This document shows, piece by piece, positions 7,730 to 45,985 of a stretch of 64,000 bases of DNA. A program made the position numbers and the translations under genes. Origin of the DNA: a virus; IMG/VR virus record IMGVR_UViG_3300045988_180880, positions 1 to 64,000 of that record; one strand, written 5' to 3'. Positions within the stretch are counted from its first letter, which is position 1, and each line of letters opens with the position of its first letter. The notes beneath the pieces were generated by a model. It saw nothing but the letters and a program-made list of their open reading frames with translations, did no database searches and was not told the DNA's origin.

Positions 7730-9091
7730 TTACATGTCTAATGGTTGGTTGTTTTCAGGATCTAATGCAGTAAGATGTCCTATAGATTTTAAAATGTTCC
7801 ATGCATCTTGACCATTTAAAACGTAATAATTATTTATTAAAGTATTTGATTTCAAACTTCTGTAAATTTTTCTTTGAGAACTATTAAGGTGCTCATCTTT
7901 GTATAAATCTTTTAAATTAGTATAAGTTTTTATTATTTTTGTTTTATCTTTTGAAATTATAAAATATACGTATTTTAATTTATTAAAAAGTGCATCATTA
8001 TCACCTTCTTTAATACATATATAAGATTTTTTACATAACATTGCAGATAATAAAGTTCCTGAAAGATTCAATCCTTTATTATAATCTGTTCCATATATAA
8101 ATTCATATGCTTCTCTAGTGTGTGTCTTTAAGATAATATCTCCATATAAATTACAAACGATAATAGTATTACTTATGTACTTTATTGTATTAATATTATT
8201 CATATTCTCTTTATTATTACATAGTTTAAGATTATCAAAATGATTATTTTTTCGATCTCTATCAATATGATCTACAATTTCTCCCTTTTCTAAATTTCTT
8301 CCTAGAATATATTCCATTATAATTCTATGAGCAGGGTATGTTTTATGTTTAATTGATACATGAACATATCCAGTAGTATTTCTTTCGTCACTATAGTATG
8401 ATAATTTCTCATCTATTTTAATAAATCCTTTTTTACATACATACAATCCTGGATACTTCCAATGTTCATACCATTCATAATCATCTAGATTTCCTGAAAA
8501 TCCTGGAATAATTCGATTTGGTTTTTCGTATTTCCAAATCATCCCTTTATAAGTTCCTCCTTTAATCGCAGCAGACTCTATAGAAGATCTTACATATTTA
8601 CTTGGAGTATCCCTTGCATAAAATCTCTCAACTTCTTTTCCATCTAGGGTATATCCAACATACATTCCTAAAAATTTTGTATTTCTTAGTGATACTTTAT
8701 CAGTTCTCCAGTTTTCTTCTGGAGTAACCCACTCTAAATTATTTAAAGTGTTATCACCTCTATTATTATTTATATGATTAACTACATTATATATGTTTGG
8801 ATTAGGGTTATTTAAGAATACAGAAGCAACCATTCTATGAACACTTGAATTAATTGATTTAGGCTTTCCATTTTCTCTATAAGTAGAGGTAAATCTTATA
8901 TATTTATTCTCACTAACTACCTTACTTAATAATCTTCCAGTTTCTAAATTTTTCATTTCCCCTCTCTTATTTACTCCATATCTTCCAGAAATTTCTTTAG
9001 GAACTATAGGAGCTTCAATAGGCATAAATACATCATCGGGTAAGAAAGGATATTTTTCACGTTGTACAAAAATTGAAGGTAAATTCTCCAT
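7730..9091 (-). CDS. HNH homing endonuclease (two HNH/NUMOD-like modules)
   Basis: VVNHINNNRGDNTLNNLEWVTPEEN and IVDHIDRDRKNNHFDNLKLCNNKENMNN. Confidence 0.8.
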   Translation of the reverse strand: MENLPSIFVQREKYPFLPDDVFMPIEAPIVPKEISGRYGVNKRGEMKNLETGRLLSKVVSENKYIRFTSTYRENGKPKSINSSVHRMVASVFLNNPNPNIYNVVNHINNNRGDNTLNNLEWVTPEENWRTDKVSLRNTKFLGMYVGYTLDGKEVERFYARDTPSKYVRSSIESAAIKGGTYKGMIWKYEKPNRIIPGFSGNLDDYEWYEHWKYPGLYVCKKGFIKIDEKLSYYSDERNTTGYVHVSIKHKTYPAHRIIMEYILGRNLEKGEIVDHIDRDRKNNHFDNLKLCNNKENMNNINTIKYISNTIIVCNLYGDIILKTHTREAYEFIYGTDYNKGLNLSGTLLSAMLCKKSYICIKEGDNDALFNKLKYVYFIISKDKTKIIKTYTNLKDLYKDEHLNSSQRKIYRSLKSNTLINNYYVLNGQDAWNILKSIGHLTALDPENNQPLDM

Positions 9092-10861: not shown

Positions 10862-11983
10862 TTATTTATTCTTTCTATAAGAAAGAGTTTCCGGATTATT
10901 CATATTTTCTTTTTGAGTTACTTCTCTTAGATTAGAGTATTCATTATTAATTGTCTCTACAGATCGAACAGGTTGAATATGATCTATTACATTATTTTCT
11001 TCTATCTTTTTCCCAGAAATAGTTTCATAAACTAATCTATGAACTAAAATTGATTTTCCTCCGATTTTTATTCTATACCTTTGTTCTTTTTCTTCTAAAG
11101 TACCTATATTTTCTACTCCATTAATCTTTAGAATTCCACAAAGATTGGCTTCAACTTTATGAGAGGTAATAAATGGGTTAAGATACCATCCATTTTCTAT
11201 AACTGGATGACGAGATTTATAATCTTCGAGTGTTAAGTCTATTCTTTTCCATTCATAACCTTTGTAAGTAATTCTAATTCCACATAACACTTTTCTATAG
11301 CCTGGAAAATATTTCTTTAGTTCACTAGCATTATACCATTCTTTAATAACTTTTTTATCTTTTGGATCGATTTGAAGATACTTGTATTTATGACAAAAAT
11401 TATTTAATCTATTCTCTGCCTTATTGTTTTCGCTATAAGTAATCCACTCCAGATTTTCTTTGCAAAAATTTAAGGGATTTAAATCTTTATGGTTTATTAT
11501 ATTATTTACTTCTGGATATAAATTAGGAATAAATAGATAAGCGATTAAAGAGTGATTATAAACATGAATACTAATATCAAATAAAGAAAAGCTTCTTTCG
11601 GGATATATTCTTCTATTTGAAATTTTATTTTTAAGATTAGATTTTCTTACTTTTCCTTTATAATTACATTGAATTGCGCCATACTTATTAATAAAGTATA
11701 TATTAGATAAATCATAATCTAATAATTTCTTAAAATTTTCATTTCGATCAATTAATTCAAATTTAAAAAATTTTTCAAGATCTATCCATTGATTATCTGG
11801 AATATCATCATAATAGTACTCCATAAGATCATCCGTTTCACGATTTAAAACTAAAATTTTCTTTTCTCCAGAGTTTAATTCTACTTCTGCGACATCATAG
11901 TAGTCTTCGGGGTAAGATTCGTGATGTTTAAATAGGTTTCTCCATTCTGATGGAAGTTCTGTTTTTAAATGATTCTGTAACAT
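10862..11983 (-). CDS. HNH homing endonuclease
   Basis: IINHKDLNPLNFCKENLEWITYSEN and VIDHIQP...NLREVTQKENMNN. Paralogue of 7730..9091. Confidence 0.8.
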   Translation of the reverse strand: MLQNHLKTELPSEWRNLFKHHESYPEDYYDVAEVELNSGEKKILVLNRETDDLMEYYYDDIPDNQWIDLEKFFKFELIDRNENFKKLLDYDLSNIYFINKYGAIQCNYKGKVRKSNLKNKISNRRIYPERSFSLFDISIHVYNHSLIAYLFIPNLYPEVNNIINHKDLNPLNFCKENLEWITYSENNKAENRLNNFCHKYKYLQIDPKDKKVIKEWYNASELKKYFPGYRKVLCGIRITYKGYEWKRIDLTLEDYKSRHPVIENGWYLNPFITSHKVEANLCGILKINGVENIGTLEEKEQRYRIKIGGKSILVHRLVYETISGKKIEENNVIDHIQPVRSVETINNEYSNLREVTQKENMNNPETLSYRKNK

Positions 11984-39123: not shown

Positions 39124-40290
39124 TCAGAACATTAATCCACCTCGATATAAACTTGGATTACCTTTCTGTCTAATTATCTTAACTAATGTTTCGCCATCCC
39201 CATATATATCCTTAACTAGAATAAATCCGTCTTCATCAGGATCTTCAAGAATGGTTCCAATACTAAGTTCTTGATTTTTCCAGAGACTTGAGAATTGAGA
39301 TGTCATTCTAGTTTTCCAACCATCTAGGATATTACTACAATAATCCTCATTTGTCTTAGTATCTGAATCTTTATCTTCCATCTCACAATCTTTTCCAAGC
39401 CATTCTGGGAAATTAGCTCTTCCTGGACGAAGAATTTCCTTAATCCTTGTTACATCTTCCTCTGTTTCAACAGGGAATTTCATGATATCGAAAACATATT
39501 TAGCCAAAGGAATATTAAGGCAAGTATCTTCAGAAAGTTTTTCATGAATATTTACTTCATCAACAATCGAACCAAGAATATCAATAGTAGATATCTCAAG
39601 AAGATCGATTTTTTGAAGAATATTCTCTCTCTCTTCTGGAATTTTTAAATTATCGTCCAAATATTCGTTTATTGCTTTTTCTGACAAATTTCCGAATTGT
39701 TTGATATATCTAATTCTTCCAGGACGTCCAAGTAAATTCTCATTTACGTTAAGTGTATTTGTTGTTAGAATATATAATTTTCTTGATCTATTATATACCC
39801 CATCAATTAATTTTAGTAATACTTCATCACTCTCTCCTCGCTTAAATGTTTTCTCTGCTTCATCAATCAAAACAATACATTCAAAGTCGAGTTGTTGAAT
39901 AAAACTTACCATTCCCTCTATTTCATTATCAGGAATGATTATGACAGGAATGTCTAATCTATTACATAATAGTTTAGCACCAACACTTTTTCCTGTTCCT
40001 TTATATCCTGTGAAAATAACACCAAGATTCTTATTCCCTTCAACAAATTTATCTGATTCCCAAGTTTTTTGAATTATATCAAATAAATTATCACAACCTA
40101 CATCATATATTTTGTGATTAAATTCAAACTTTTCTGAGAGTTTTTTTAAACCGATTCTCTTATCTTGACCTTTTCCTTGATATAATTCAAAAATTCCTGA
40201 ACCTGGAGTTGGATAAAGTACTGTATTTCCATCAATCGGAAATAAAGTTCCACATTCATCAATCCATTTTTGTGCTACTAAATTTTTCAT
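39124..40290 (-). CDS. AAA+ ATPase (classic AAA clade)
   Basis: Walker A GYKGTGKS, Walker B CIVLIDEAE, sensor-1 ILTTNT, RPGRIRY. Confidence 0.8.
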   Translation of the reverse strand: MKNLVAQKWIDECGTLFPIDGNTVLYPTPGSGIFELYQGKGQDKRIGLKKLSEKFEFNHKIYDVGCDNLFDIIQKTWESDKFVEGNKNLGVIFTGYKGTGKSVGAKLLCNRLDIPVIIIPDNEIEGMVSFIQQLDFECIVLIDEAEKTFKRGESDEVLLKLIDGVYNRSRKLYILTTNTLNVNENLLGRPGRIRYIKQFGNLSEKAINEYLDDNLKIPEERENILQKIDLLEISTIDILGSIVDEVNIHEKLSEDTCLNIPLAKYVFDIMKFPVETEEDVTRIKEILRPGRANFPEWLGKDCEMEDKDSDTKTNEDYCSNILDGWKTRMTSQFSSLWKNQELSIGTILEDPDEDGFILVKDIYGDGETLVKIIRQKGNPSLYRGGLMF

Positions 40291-42410: not shown

Positions 42411-42781
42411 GTAAATTTTATATTATCTAAGTTTTTTACTAAATGTTTCAAATCATTCGCATAAGGACAATTTTTAGATCCTTGGATAAATGATTTTTTG
42501 AGTTCTTCTAGGTCAACACTAACTTCCTGAATGATTAAGCAATCGATCATATTTCTATATCGAAGATGTTCTAATAAAGAAGTATCATCACAAAATCGAA
42601 ATATACAAAATTTTCCAAGACAAGTTTTTACATAAATTTGTTTAGGAGTTATTCTCTTAGTCGCTAACCCATCTAAATTATATTCTAAAATAAAGTTCTC
42701 TCCAAGAATATTTCCACTAACAATTCCAATATCAGTTGATAATTCTTTTTGAAGTCTTCTGTAAAAACTAATCTTCACCAT
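42407..42781 (-). CDS. hypothetical protein, member 1 of a three-gene paralogue array downstream of rtcB
   Basis: KRITPKQIYVKTCLGKFCIF ... VSVDLEELKKSFIQGSKN. Confidence 0.55.
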   Translation of the reverse strand: MVKISFYRRLQKELSTDIGIVSGNILGENFILEYNLDGLATKRITPKQIYVKTCLGKFCIFRFCDDTSLLEHLRYRNMIDCLIIQEVSVDLEELKKSFIQGSKNCPYANDLKHLVKNLDNIKFT

Positions 42782-43565
42782 CTCCAGTTCCTGCTTTAAT
42801 AGATAAAATAGGTTTAATAATTTCCAAAATTTTCACTGTATCTTGTATTCCAGTTATTATTTCAGAAGGATCTTTATATACCTCGGGCGCTTCATCAATA
42901 CAGGCGAGACATACAGAACTAGAATATACATTGCCCATACTTTCTTTAAATTCTTGGAGACTTAATCGTTCTCTTGCTTCTCGCCTAGACATTAAGCGCC
43001 CAGCACCATGAGGAGCACTATAATTTCTATCAGGATTACCAAGACCTTCACAAATTAAGGTTCCAAAAGCCATGTTCATAGGGATAATTACTTTCTGTCC
43101 GGCGTAAGCTTGAATAGATCCTTTTCTAATTATTCTATCTCTTGGATCTATATAATTATGAATAGACTCAATCCTCTCAAGCTCTTTTCCGAGTCCAAGA
43201 GCTTTTTTAATTCTCTCTGATATCACCATTCGATTATATTCTGCATAAGCTTGAGCAAAAAACATATCCCCGAGATAACCAGATATATCTTCATGTGTTA
43301 CTAAGAATCTACTAGGCGGAATTGTATATCGGCCGGAAGCATGAAGTTTTTCTATTTCTTCTTTGATTTTCTTCCCTTGACCTTTATACTTCTCCTTAAT
43401 TCCTCTCTCGGCCGCTTTCATATCCGCCTCAATTATCCTAGTTTTCCCAATTTGTTTTTTCCAATAAGCAAGTATTTTTATTCCTAAGTTTCTTGATCCT
43501 GTATGAATAGTAACCCAAACAGACTCTTTATCTTCTTCTACCTGTCCAAGTTCTATAAAATGATT
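42768..43565 (-). CDS. rtcB: RNA 3'-phosphate ligase RtcB, exon 2
   Basis: Begins NHFIELG (second half of the GGGNHFIE motif). Also HTGSRNLG and APHGAGR. The ORF-track ORF 42768..43607 extends 14 codons into the intron. Confidence 0.85.
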   Translation of the reverse strand, partial: NHFIELGQVEEDKESVWVTIHTGSRNLGIKILAYWKKQIGKTRIIEADMKAAERGIKEKYKGQGKKIKEEIEKLHASGRYTIPPSRFLVTHEDISGYLGDMFFAQAYAEYNRMVISERIKKALGLGKELERIESIHNYIDPRDRIIRKGSIQAYAGQKVIIPMNMAFGTLICEGLGNPDRNYSAPHGAGRLMSRREARERLSLQEFKESMGNVYSSSVCLACIDEAPEVYKDPSEIITGIQDTVKILEIIKPILSIKAGTGDGED

Positions 43566-43815
43566 CAATTTTGTTACTAATACCTTTTCAAGTATTGGAT
43601 AGGTCATTTCTGCCTATCTCTAGTAGTTCTTTTTCCTACTAGTTCGGAGCACACCTTCTGACTTTTATGCCAGGCCAAGTCCCTCTGCTCTCTACGGGGG
43701 TATAAGTTTTAACACTATAACCTTCCCTCGGTGATTAGCATCTCAGCTTCTCCCGATATGGACGACTTTTACAACGAATGACTATTAATCATTCTGGAGG
43801 CAATCAATTTTTCTC
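43566..43815 (-). ncRNA. group I self-splicing intron (no internal ORF) in rtcB
   Basis: It splits GTLGGG|NHFIEL. P1 is readable: exon GGAGGU | gagaaaaauugauu GCCUCC, with U:G at the splice site. The intron ends in G (uuG). The region is visibly richer in GC than its flanks, with several hairpins (GAAUGA/UCAUUC, CUAGUAG/CUACUAG, GAUAGG/CCUAUC). Confidence 0.8.
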
Positions 43816-45267
43816 ACCTCCACCAAGAGTTCCAAGAGATTTATAGAAAATTCCCTCAGACATACCAATTCTTTTAAGGGTTTTTGATATAAATTTCTCT
43901 ATCTCTCCAAGACCCTCATAACATACAAATTCAGGCCATAAACTTCTTGCTCTTTCAAGTTTTGTTTTAAAAAATTTCTTGAATTCTTTTTCTTGGATAA
44001 CAGTTTTCTCATTAATCTCCATACCCATTGGAATATCTCTACGAATTCTAGCATCCCAAAGAGCTAATTCTGGATCTCCCGAAGGCATTTTATATTTTAC
44101 ACTTAACATTCCACAATTACCAGTAATAAAAATTCTTCCATTTCTTCTACATACAAAATATCCAGTATCCGTGGTAAAACAATATTTAAATCCATCAATA
44201 GAAGGAACAATACTAGATTTTTTATTATAAGTAACTATTTTATTCCTAGCAGGACTCACATAATAAACTATATTCCATCTCTCTTTTCCTAAAATTTCTG
44301 AAATTCCTGCTCTAGTATTTGTAGCCGAAAATGCAAATTGAATTACATCTATATTATCTTTATTAGTATTTGAATAAGAACTTCTATATCCATTATGTCC
44401 ATCCCAAAGTAAACACTCTTCTTTTACTATTTCAAGTTGCTCTTTAGTAGCCAGATAATACTTTTTAAGATCTTTGTTTATTGAAAAATCTACATTAAAT
44501 CGTATAGAAGTAGATTTATCTTTTAATATTGAAATTTTATACTCAATATTAGCATCCTCTAATAATTTTTTTGCTCTTTCTATTTTTCTTTCTTTTCTAA
44601 AATGTAATTCTATTCTATTATGATCTTTAGCAGGTATTATCTTTCCATCCGCTTGTACCATAATATCTATTCTAATCATTTCATTGGACAAACTAACACC
44701 TGGGTTATTAGATATATTAAAACAAGTTTTAAATCCATAAAAACCTTTAGATAAATTGAGTTTATCTAATTCTATTGGAGTAATTTTTCTATGATTCAAT
44801 TTATGTCCCTTCCAATATCCAGAGTATACTAATAAATTATGTTCTGAACTAATCAATTGATCTAATCCACTTTTCTTATTATAATATTGATGAAATTCAG
44901 TACAAGGAGATTTTATATACTTTATAGGTTTTAAAAATTTTCCCTCATCCGTTTCCGGATCAAATTGCATAATCTCTTCATCAGCATAGTTAGATATTTT
45001 AATCCACCCAGTTGGTGTTAACACTTCTGTATCACAATCTAGACACGATATATCACAGCCAACTACATCAGGATCAAGAGGACCGCCAGAATAAGTTTGA
45101 GTATATCCTACTACGCAACCTTTCCCACAATGAACATCCTCCATAATCCTAACTGTTTCATTCTCAGTCATTTTAGTATTTAAAAGTTCGTAGACTTGAG
45201 AAACTGCTTCTGGTTCAATATTATCAGTAAAGACAATTGCTTTACCATATTTTCCTGTTATTTCCAT
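43816..45267 (-). CDS. rtcB: RNA 3'-phosphate ligase RtcB, exon 1 (contains the intein)
   Basis: VRIMEDVHCGKGCVVG, VVGCDIS|C...N|CGM (the DIGCGM motif interrupted), and it ends GTLGGG. Confidence 0.85.
44116..45045 (-). mobile_element. intein (310 aa) with an insert resembling a LAGLIDADG homing endonuclease
   Basis: Starts CLDCDTEVLTPTGWIKI (block A). Block B SSEHNLLV. Ends FVCRRNGRIFITGN followed by the +1 Cys. Internal IDIMVQADGKI and ECLLWDGHNGY resemble LAGLIDADG motifs. Confidence 0.8.
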
Positions 45268-45271
45268 ATCC

Positions 45272-45985
45272 CTATAATTTCTTTGATAAACTATAAATCC
45301 AATGACGTCCTTCTTCAGTCCACCTCTTTACATTTCTTGGTTTTCCTGCCTTGTCAAATATAGTAACTATTTTTGTATATCCAAATTTATCAAATGGTTC
45401 CTTTAAGTACCATTTCTTTTTATCATGAGATCTAAAAATTAAATTATTCTTCTCTAATAATCTTAATAATTCTATATTAGATATTCCAAGACCCAAATCT
45501 TTCACTATATCTCTTGTTGAATATAGATTTTCTGAAGTAGTTAGGACTCGATTACAATAATCTACTTGAGGCTGTTGATTTTGAATAGTAATCTGTAGGT
45601 TAGTAATTTCAGAGGTTAATCTTCCAATTTCAGCGTCTCTCAGAGCAAATCCATTATTTATAATTTCGTCTAATTTTCTTAGACACCATACTCCAAATTT
45701 AGGACTACACCACATAGCAAAATGAATAGCTATTAATCTATGCATCCAAGTACCTTGATTCTGAGGAATACCTCCTTTAATAACTACTATTAATTCCGAT
45801 ATCGGAATTCCGATATCGATCGAGACCTCATTGATTAATTCTTTTGTCTGTTGATTACTAAGATAATGACCTAACTGCTTCTTACAAACTTTTGCTATCT
45901 CAGTAGCATTAATCATGACATCATTACTTGTCAATGCAAATGGAATAATACATCCATTATACTCAAAATTTAATAATTCATTCAT
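45272..45985 (-). CDS. KilA-N domain protein with a KilAC/antirepressor-like C-terminal domain
   Basis: FEYNGCIIPF...VMINATEIAK...QGTWMHRLIAIHFAMWCSPKFGVW, and C-terminal YSTRDIVKDLGL...W.L. Confidence 0.7.
   Translation of the reverse strand: MNELLNFEYNGCIIPFALTSNDVMINATEIAKVCKKQLGHYLSNQQTKELINEVSIDIGIPISELIVVIKGGIPQNQGTWMHRLIAIHFAMWCSPKFGVWCLRKLDEIINNGFALRDAEIGRLTSEITNLQITIQNQQPQVDYCNRVLTTSENLYSTRDIVKDLGLGISNIELLRLLEKNNLIFRSHDKKKWYLKEPFDKFGYTKIVTIFDKAGKPRNVKRWTEEGRHWIYSLSKKL

Follow-up and report, generated by a model that had tools for sequence, protein, structure and literature searches.

Evidence that an intein and a group I intron interrupt catalytic motifs of the RNA ligase gene rtcB in an uncultivated jumbo phage

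Introduction

How can a gene for RtcB, the RNA 3′-phosphate/5′-OH ligase, encode a whole enzyme when its reading frame is broken at two catalytic motifs? This question is raised by a 64,000-nucleotide stretch of viral DNA (the window; positions 1 to 64,000 of IMG/VR record IMGVR_UViG_3300045988_180880), in which rtcB occupies the minus strand from 45267 to 42768 and is called as two open reading frames (ORFs). An initial annotation, made from the letters of the window, had proposed that the gene carries an intein and a group I intron, each inside a catalytic motif, and this proposal is borne out by empty sites in sibling phages, the fold of the intein, covariation in the intron, and comparison with the enzyme PhoRtcB. 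We conclude that two independent mobile self-splicing elements have very probably invaded this phage gene, and we hold the identification of the two elements at least as firmly. We document below where the elements begin and end, their homology and fold, the RNA structure and its covariation, the presence/absence polymorphism, and the purifying selection; that both splicing reactions would be catalyzed, and that the endonuclease would be active, we infer.

The gene belongs to an uncultivated jumbo phage, whose closest contigs are 250 to 380 kb long and come from human-gut metagenomes. Searches of the annotated phage collection with the whole gene (blastn) and with a neighboring 518-aa protein (tblastn) both returned no match, so the phage has no sequenced cultured relative in that collection. 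Both insertions belong to well-known kinds of selfish element, and such elements accumulate in jumbo phages (PMC7824862).

Results and discussion

Organization of the interrupted gene

All features of the gene lie on the minus strand. The 487-aa ORF (45267 to 43804) follows RtcB as far as VVGCDIS, continues with CLDCDTEVLTPTGW and, after FVCRRNGRIFITGN, resumes the RtcB sequence at CGMLSV, as had been claimed, before it ends in GTLGGGEKN and a stop codon. The insert itself closes with RIFITGN. The other half of the GTLGGG motif resumes in a second ORF (43607 to 42768), which holds NHFIELG, HTGSRNLG, and APHGAGR; the initial annotation had placed the stop three codons after GTLGGG and the resumption 250 nt later, and these and all its other coordinates are correct.

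Pfam PF01139 and uninterrupted homologues define a composite gene (42768 to 45267) made up of an N-extein, an intein, the start of the C-extein, a group I intron, and exon 2. The N-extein comprises codons 1 to 74 (45046 to 45267), ends in VVGCDIS, and is collinear with an uninterrupted sibling allele, L015, that reads DVVGCDIS|CGMLSVKY. The intein consists of 310 codons (residues 75 to 384 of the ORF, CLDCDTEV to RIFITGN; 44116 to 45045) recognized by its splicing residues, an AlphaFold2 (AF2) model, and Foldseek matches, and is followed by a TGT codon (44115 to 44113) for the +1 Cys. Nested within it, with approximate limits at intein residues 115 and 265 (44251 to 44703), is a LAGLIDADG homing-endonuclease domain placed by conservation and by matches to I-DmoI. 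The remainder of exon 1 (43816 to 44115; extein codons 75 to 174, CGMLSV to GTLGGG) ends at the U of the 5′ splice site, U43816. The 250-nt group I intron, which has no ORF, then runs from G43815 to a terminal G43566 (43566 to 43815) and is exactly missing from uninterrupted alleles. Exon 2 (42768 to 43565), placed by its ORF and by homologue comparison, starts with AAUCAU at 43565 and holds extein codons 175 to 439 and the stop codon (NHFIELG...HTGSRNLG...IHNYID...APHGAGR).

Joining U43816 to A43565 keeps the reading frame, giving the predicted exon junction GGUGGAGGU|AAUCAUUUU, and excision of the intein as well leaves a protein of 439 aa, in agreement with the length of about 439 aa given earlier for this join. 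This product has a single Pfam RtcB match that spans residues 37 to 431 and profile positions 13 to 425 of 426 (PF01139; E 2e-55, 189 bits), whereas the two raw ORFs give separate weaker matches of 32.5 and 121.4 bits. A search of solved RtcB structures also matches the spliced, intein-free product. The gap had been described as ending in G, rich in GC, and containing hairpins, all of which we confirmed: its GC content of 40.4% exceeds that of the exons (31.6%) and of the window (28.9%), and its single-sequence fold has a minimum free energy of -73.9 kcal/mol (z = -4.16 versus shuffles). The ATG at 43607 that opens the mechanically called 279-aa ORF falls within the intron, and N-terminal extensions of this kind show no conservation among relatives.

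Uninterrupted and partly interrupted sibling alleles

Sibling loci (L numbers) were fetched from IMG/VR after a protein search with the reconstructed extein. This search found uninterrupted RtcB proteins, such as P0035 (438 aa, 88% identical), and it also returned many proteins that hold only exon 1 or only exon 2. In L015 to L017 (93 to 96% amino acid identity) and in L008 to L011 and L046 (88%), rtcB is one ORF of 438 to 439 codons, and these alleles read DI(S/G)|CG(M/L) and GGG|NHF at exactly the two points at which the window's gene is broken. The claim that removal of residues 75 to 384 restores the motif DISCGM is matched by L015, which reads straight through the intein site as DVVGCDISCGMLSVKY, with no interruption; its DNA is gacatatcg|tgtggtatg (DIS|CGM), with nothing between. 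All intron-less alleles read ggcggcggg|aatcac (GGG|NH) at the intron site.

Other siblings carry the insertions in different combinations. The intron is present without an intein in L001, L004, and L012; the window's intein and the intron occur together in L002, L003, L006, and L007; the intron is combined with a different intein, at MED|CH, in L005, L013, and L014 (P0072); and a human-gut contig, L191 (4628 to 8109), combines the two inteins with the intron, so that its gene carries three insertions. Near-identical rtcB alleles in this gut jumbo-phage population carry zero, one, two, or three insertions. Because the sibling alleles show each state, we conclude that both inserts are discrete elements that are independently present or absent and have the boundaries proposed. 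An uncultivated source invites the suspicion of an assembly artefact or a chimeric metagenomic contig, a suspicion that is scarcely credible given that identical or near-identical arrangements occur in many independent IMG/VR, ENA, and Logan assemblies from different samples.

We also made several observations on the alleles themselves. The MED|CH intein, at approximately 2376 to 3347 in L005, L013, and L014, belongs to the same family as the window's intein, is 328 aa long, and sits in a PDxH motif. Around the intron site, the intron-less alleles (L015 to L017, L008 to L011, and L046) have synonymous flank changes, reading ggcggcggg|aatcacttctta where intron-bearing alleles read ggtggaggt|aatcattttata, and these changes abolish both the U at position -1 and the complementarity that forms the intron's P1 helix. 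In L012 (4001 to 4012), the intron is present and its downstream flank is of the intron-less type. Such a flank pattern resembles co-conversion tracts or sites that resist the endonuclease. A 98%-identical rtcB allele, P0036 (345 aa), has an internal deletion that joins EFVCYEG to QGKKIKEE and takes out the intron site and the NHF and HTGSR motifs; from its sequence, it is probably a dead allele.

Sequence, predicted fold, and family of the intein

The intein has a class-1-type set of residues, namely C1, S66 to H69 (block B, S-x-x-H), N310, and the +1 Cys. We found 34 homologues and aligned the 28 that have clean boundaries. Invariant across these 28 relatives are C1, T6, E7, H69, D133, K151, R153, K154, C289 (block F:4), F306, T308, G309, and N310; W214, D215, and G216 are at least 90% conserved, and the block B consensus in the family is S/T-x-x-H. 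Block B and a terminal Asn followed by Cys, both read earlier from the window alone, are backed by the invariance of C1, H69, and N310. The ending in GN had been called unusual; the GN is real but is no oddity of this copy, since every clean-boundary member ends in F(I/L)TGN, followed by C, S, or T. The two LAGLIDADG-like motifs also noted earlier are IMVQADG (motif 1, with D133) and LLWDG (motif 2, with D215), and both endonuclease Asp residues and all splicing residues are intact in the window copy.

A single-sequence phmmer search of the Protein Data Bank gave only a marginal intein match (0.028), so a family profile was needed; this profile matched the solved inteins AceL NrdHF (6e-11), Spl DnaX (0.006), and PolII (0.02). 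For the AF2 model of the intein (predicted local distance difference test score 94.8, predicted template modeling score 0.91), the best Foldseek match was the TliVMA intein 7qsu (E 2e-13; query template modeling score [TMq] 0.69), followed by PI-SceI, PhoVMA, and PI-PfuI, with a range over homing-endonuclease inteins of E 2e-13 to 2e-9 and TMq 0.6 to 0.7. The central domain of the model matches I-DmoI. In the predicted structure, a LAGLIDADG domain with its two catalytic acidic residues is nested within a HINT fold. When the window's intein was compared with a 72%-identical RtcB intein (L214), the ratio of nonsynonymous to synonymous substitution rates (dN/dS) was 0.15 overall and 0.12 in the endonuclease domain, and these low values suggest that the intein endonuclease is, or was recently, functional.

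Relatives of this intein occupy three sites in RtcB, MED|CH, HVG|CDIGC, and DIG|CGM. Their other hosts include Walker A motifs or P-loops of terminase, AAA proteins, RecD-like and DnaB helicases, a clamp loader, and guanylate kinase, and relatives are also inserted in PolA and an amidase. The HVG|CDIGC site (P0004, P0006, and P0011) lies three residues upstream of the window's site, and its +1 Cys is the Cys that precedes the metal-binding Asp. A full search of 1.84 billion representatives returned 16,806 cluster representatives at E <= 0.001 and 3,139 at E <= 1e-30, with DnaB-type helicase, primase-helicase, clamp loader, RecD-like helicase, PolA, and RtcB among the hosts and with two to four copies of the "FITGN" intein in some proteins. 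The host range of the relatives is classical for inteins. Because the family is very large yet rarely recognized by the Pfam intein models, many of its hosts are probably mis-annotated or called as fragments.

Structure and covariation of the intron

The exon end GGAGGU (43821 to 43816) pairs with an internal guide, GCCUCC (43801 to 43796), across a 14-nt loop, forming the P1 helix with U·G at the splice site that the initial annotation had described. In the same P1 and P10 region of exon and guide pairing (43796 to 43821), UGAUU (43806 to 43802) can pair with AAUCA of exon 2 (43565 to 43561) as P10, and the P1 loop contains a TGA that ends the reading frame three codons into the intron. Bacterial and phage group I introns typically have such an in-frame stop a short way past the 5′ splice site (PMC3984707).

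The catalytic core, P3 to P8 (43646 to 43763), was assigned by reading and covariation. It comprises P3 (GUCC, 43763 to 43760, with GGAC, 43682 to 43679), P4 (UCGG, 43756 to 43753, with CCGA, 43731 to 43728), P5 (AGC with GCU), P6/P6a (GGG..GGU with ACC..CCC), P7 (G[A]GAGCA, 43692 to 43686, with UGCUCC, 43651 to 43646), and P8 (CUGGC, 43673 to 43669, with GUCAG, 43662 to 43658), and each core helix is fully paired in the window's intron. P2 is also present, between P1/P10 and P3, and three peripheral hairpins lie at 43579 to 43642, P9 (CUAGUAG/CUACUAG), P9.1 (GAUAGG/CCUAUC), and P9.2 (AAUAC/GUAUU). The strands come in the order P3-P4-P5-P6-P7-P3′-P8-P7′, which gives the P3/P7 pseudoknot that defines group I. 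As read from the sequence, the predicted guanosine-binding site in P7 has a bulged A followed by G-C and A-U pairs, a layout that we take to be like the C[A]GA of Tetrahymena. The core has one P8 hairpin between P3′ and P7′ and neither P7.1 nor P7.2, and in this it presumably departs from the IA2 type to which phage introns typically belong.

The loops of P9.1 (CAGAAAUGA, 43610 to 43602), P2 (UUAAUAG, 43788 to 43782), and P5 (CUGNGAUG, 43745 to 43738) are nearly invariant across very divergent introns, a level of conservation that suggests tertiary contacts. An nhmmer profile of the intron found no further copies in the window. A weak Rfam match to salivarius-1 (43139 to 43203, plus strand, E 0.11), which lies inside exon 2, was dismissed as chance.

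Intron homologues at the same GGG|NHF junction were collected from divergent phage rtcB genes, pattern scans of viral and metagenome contigs, and GTDB genomes. The first 15-nt core pattern was too unspecific, almost all of its 116 matches being chance; a gapped core pattern worked, although 6 of its 27 metagenome matches were still chance. All true matches sit in rtcB at GGG|NHF. Four GTDB loci (L207, L208, L210, and L212) show the intron family splitting rtcB at this codon junction in bacterial genomes or metagenome-assembled genomes (MAGs), with carriers that include an Acidobacteria MAG, an Armatimonadota MAG, and a Capsulimonadaceae chromosome (OZ244065.1, 6.18 Mb), so the family is not restricted to phages.

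The terminal G directly precedes AA(U/C)CA in all 24 homologous introns inspected for it, and the U·G pair of P1 is present in 18 of 18. Across 18 distinct homologues, 99.5% of cells in the helix alignment pair, compared with 36 to 52% when the partners are slid, and compensatory changes are seen in 26 of 48 pairs. None of 500 shuffles reached the observed values on four of five measures, and 2 of 500 did so on the remaining one, further pair types. RNAalifold independently gave the same helices and P8, with 33 compensated pairs. Outside the core, 6 of the 7 pairs in P9 and 5 of the 6 in P9.1 have compensatory changes. P7 is compensated as well, being GAAUA/UAUUC in L047, GAGCG/CGCUC in L063, and GAACA/UGUUC in L208, all three of which retain the layout of the bulged A and the pairs that follow it. 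P1 covaries with synonymous exon changes and so tracks the exon, as GGUGGU/GCCACC in L183 and L063, AGCGGU/GCCGC in L212, and GGGGGU/GCCCC in L208, and the wobble base at exon position -7 (U/C) covaries with the base that follows the guide (A/G).

The P9.2 loop differs widely in content among the homologues. It holds a 208-aa two-motif LAGLIDADG ORF in L173, LAGLIDADG ORFs in L158 and L181, a long insert in the 1,110-nt intron of L183, a 99-aa single-motif ORF in L050 and L051, a decayed LAGLIDADG remnant in L214, and no ORF in the window. These contents show stages of a homing cycle.

Active site of RtcB and selection on its two halves

In PhoRtcB, Mn1 is bound by Cys98, His234, and His329 and Mn2 by Asp95, Cys98, and His203, and Asn202 contacts GTP (PMC9745838). 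The metal ligands and the His that accepts guanosine monophosphate in that enzyme (Asp95, Cys98, His203, His234, His329, and His404) all have counterparts in the spliced product of the window: N175-H176 align with PhoRtcB residues 202 and 203, the sole pair that was explicitly aligned, and D72 to C75 and the His residues of HTGSR, IHNY, and APHGAGR are present by direct reading. D72-I-S-C75 is the D-x-x-C motif of RtcB. The intein site falls between Ser74 and Cys75, immediately before the equivalent of Cys98, the Cys that bridges both Mn ions, so this metal-bridging residue doubles as the +1 splicing nucleophile. The intron lies between the codons for Gly174 and Asn175 of GGG|NHF and adjoins the Mn2-binding His.

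When the window is compared with L053, the two representing separate intron-bearing lineages, exon 1 has a dN/dS of 0.13 and exon 2 one of 0.16. Both halves are thus kept as coding sequence, which is sensible only if they are joined. They might instead be joined as protein, with two polypeptides assembling into a split RtcB, the gap serving as a spacer, and exon 2 starting at the in-frame triplet that ends the gap (TTG in the window, ATG in L047), which could serve as a start codon; two ORFs are indeed what gene callers report. We regard this as very improbable. The sequence before that triplet (GUAACAAAAUUG) is not Shine-Dalgarno-like, and the break would fall between neighboring active-site residues. 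Among relatives, neither the tail that follows GGG nor the head that precedes NHF in the mechanically called ORFs is constant in sequence or length, and this lack of conservation disfavors a two-polypeptide enzyme. Nor would a spacer keep 26 compensated pairs, a P1 that tracks the exon, or a homing-endonuclease gene in a hairpin loop. Read-through by recoding of the TGA after exon 1 was also considered and was ruled out, as a TAA follows in frame and the tails are not conserved.

Evidence against the two-element reading and the possibility of a pseudogene

Several findings weigh against an intein and a group I intron that both splice. The initial annotation had proposed a search of the gap with Rfam RF00028 and an InterPro Hint/LAGLIDADG search of the insert; our searches with Rfam and Pfam confirmed neither element. 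RF00028 gave no match in the intron region at E <= 1, in a 311-nt sub-region at E <= 10, or in the whole window at the gathering threshold, nor did it match any of 11 relatives at E <= 1. Pfam found no Hint or intein match in the window's intein, only sub-threshold noise (Integrin_A_Ig_1, C-JID, and LAGLIDADG_3 at E 0.087), and among the 28 aligned relatives LAGLIDADG_3 was matched in 8 and Intein_splicing in 1. Within the intron, P3 and P4 are invariant and hence uninformative for covariation, and the P10 pairing does not covary; the window and most relatives can form it, but L052 and L212 do so poorly. The penultimate residue of the intein (block G:6) is Gly and not His. A Cys at F:4 with a Thr at G:5 makes up two-thirds of the class 3 signature, so that splicing may follow either a class 1 or a class 3-like route.

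Since the Rfam and Pfam checks failed, the identifications rest on the other evidence described above, and we treat the Rfam miss as a sensitivity gap of the model and not as evidence against the structure. The penultimate His usually assists Asn cyclization, and splicing without it is documented (PMC4031507 and references therein). Cys is the second most common residue at F:4 (PMC4031507), so the invariant C289 fits the norms of inteins, and the class 1 route is assumed because Cys1 is invariant.

The same findings bear on whether the elements, though real, have stopped splicing. If the Gly had killed the intein, or if the intron had decayed after the loss of its endonuclease, rtcB would be a pseudogene. 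The Gly itself and the ORF-less intron are compatible with this, as is the fact that rtcB is an accessory gene whose function has been lost elsewhere in the population, to judge by the deletion in P0036. We nevertheless consider a pseudogene distinctly unlikely. Gly309 occurs in all 28 aligned relatives and hence is no lesion of the window copy; the splicing residues and both endonuclease Asp residues are intact; the intein (dN/dS 0.15) and, between intron-bearing lineages, the exons (0.13 and 0.16) are under purifying selection; all core helices of the intron are fully paired; and the same configuration is found in at least four independent long contigs. An intein and a group I intron that would both still be removed remain the reading that we favor.

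A proposed route to mature RtcB

We propose that a single RNA would be transcribed from the whole gene and that ribosomes would halt at the early TGA in the P1 loop. The ribozyme would fold, an external guanosine would attack after U43816, at the U·G pair of P1, and ligation of the exons after the terminal G43566 would create a 749-codon ORF. Translation of this ORF would give a precursor from which the intein could excise itself by formation of a thioester at Cys1, transfer to Cys+1, and cyclization of Asn310, and the products would be a 439-aa RtcB and a free 310-aa endonuclease. The latter could cut intein-less alleles of co-infecting phages and so support homing. The window's intron copy has lost its endonuclease gene and can spread only by recombination or with help in trans.

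Two further ideas seem to us rather unlikely, though somewhat less so than a pseudogene. The first is that the insertions are not pure parasites but a double conditional lock on RtcB. Because the +1 nucleophile is a redox-sensitive, Mn-bridging Cys, splicing and ligase activation could depend on redox or metal state, and the intron could control whether the C-terminal half, which is catalytic, is translated. The second, separate idea is that the intron family is an uncatalogued structural subclass of group I, as it goes undetected by Rfam and the members found, whether in phages or in bacterial chromosomes, all lie in rtcB.

Comparison with known systems

The bnrdE and bnrdF genes of Bacillus phage SPbeta reportedly carry group I introns and an intein. 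That system is like the present one in that a phage enzyme gene has an intron and an intein at conserved catalytic regions, with homing endonucleases involved, and it differs in its host gene (ribonucleotide reductase versus RtcB), in the absence of a detectable sequence relationship, and in that the gene studied here has a series of zero to three insertions.

RtcB inteins have been recorded 27 times in bacteria and 10 times in archaea (PMC4760082), and actinobacteriophages have been described with inteins in RtcB-like ligases (bioRxiv 10.1101/2025.01.02.630785). These share the host protein with the window's intein, and a Pfam-recognized mini-intein, P0108, occupies the identical DIG|CGM site. 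In contrast, the intein of the window is a member of the "F(I/L)TGN" family, has a LAGLIDADG domain, is not recognized by Pfam, and resides in a low-GC jumbo phage. The solved inteins TliVMA (7qsu/7qss), PI-SceI (1vde), PhoVMA (7qst), and PI-PfuI (1dq3) likewise have a HINT domain interrupted by a two-motif LAGLIDADG domain, and the N-terminal blocks of the AceL NrdHF-1-1 intein (6zgq) align with those of the window's intein (6e-11). Identity to solved inteins is approximately 10 to 13%, however, and the window's intein is smaller (310 aa), is without the extra DNA-recognition region, and has the penultimate Gly and the Cys at F:4.

The introns of T4 td, nrdB, and sunY, of SPO1 and Twort, and of Bacillus recA and nrdE resemble the rtcB intron in that they interrupt a conserved codon stretch of an enzyme gene and have an early in-frame stop, and among phage and bacterial group I introns, some copies have a LAGLIDADG gene in a peripheral loop and others are ORF-less (PMC3984707). 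They differ from it in their hosts, rtcB being absent from the list of group I intron host genes in that 2014 review (PMC3984707), and in that RF00028 gave no match here. We found no report of a group I intron in rtcB in the literature searched. The locus adds rtcB to the short list of protein-coding genes known to host group I introns.

Two points of use are an rtcB-specific intron family that curated models have missed and a phage population with zero to three insertions per gene. Because the intron escapes the Rfam and Pfam models altogether and the intein nearly so, the gene appears as two fragments in public protein sets, and for annotation the two ORFs belong in one spliced coding sequence. 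The allele series, together with intron endonucleases that are intact, decayed, or absent, makes a natural system for the study of homing, co-conversion, and interference between neighboring elements.

Other elements in the window and in related loci

We also noted candidate selfish elements outside rtcB. In a related phage (L053, 6382 to 6888; L054, 3869 to 4375), an interruption falls directly behind GYKGTG in the Walker A motif of the AAA ATPase gene that lies downstream of rtcB. The interrupting element, which runs past the end of the locus, has a P4-P6-like core with an nhmmer match to the rtcB intron profile (E 1e-5). The window's homologue of this gene (39124 to 40290, minus strand), with GYKGTGKS, is uninterrupted. 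Two large minus-strand ORFs of the window, at 7730 to 9091 and 10862 to 11983, have HNH_3 domains (E 3e-17 and 2e-13), and from these domains they are probably free-standing homing endonucleases, further selfish elements in the window. Directly upstream of rtcB is a KilA-N/ANT antirepressor-like gene (45272 to 45985, minus strand), which in relatives is found upstream of rtcB (L053), several genes downstream (L047), or absent from this position (L046) and looks like a mobile cassette.

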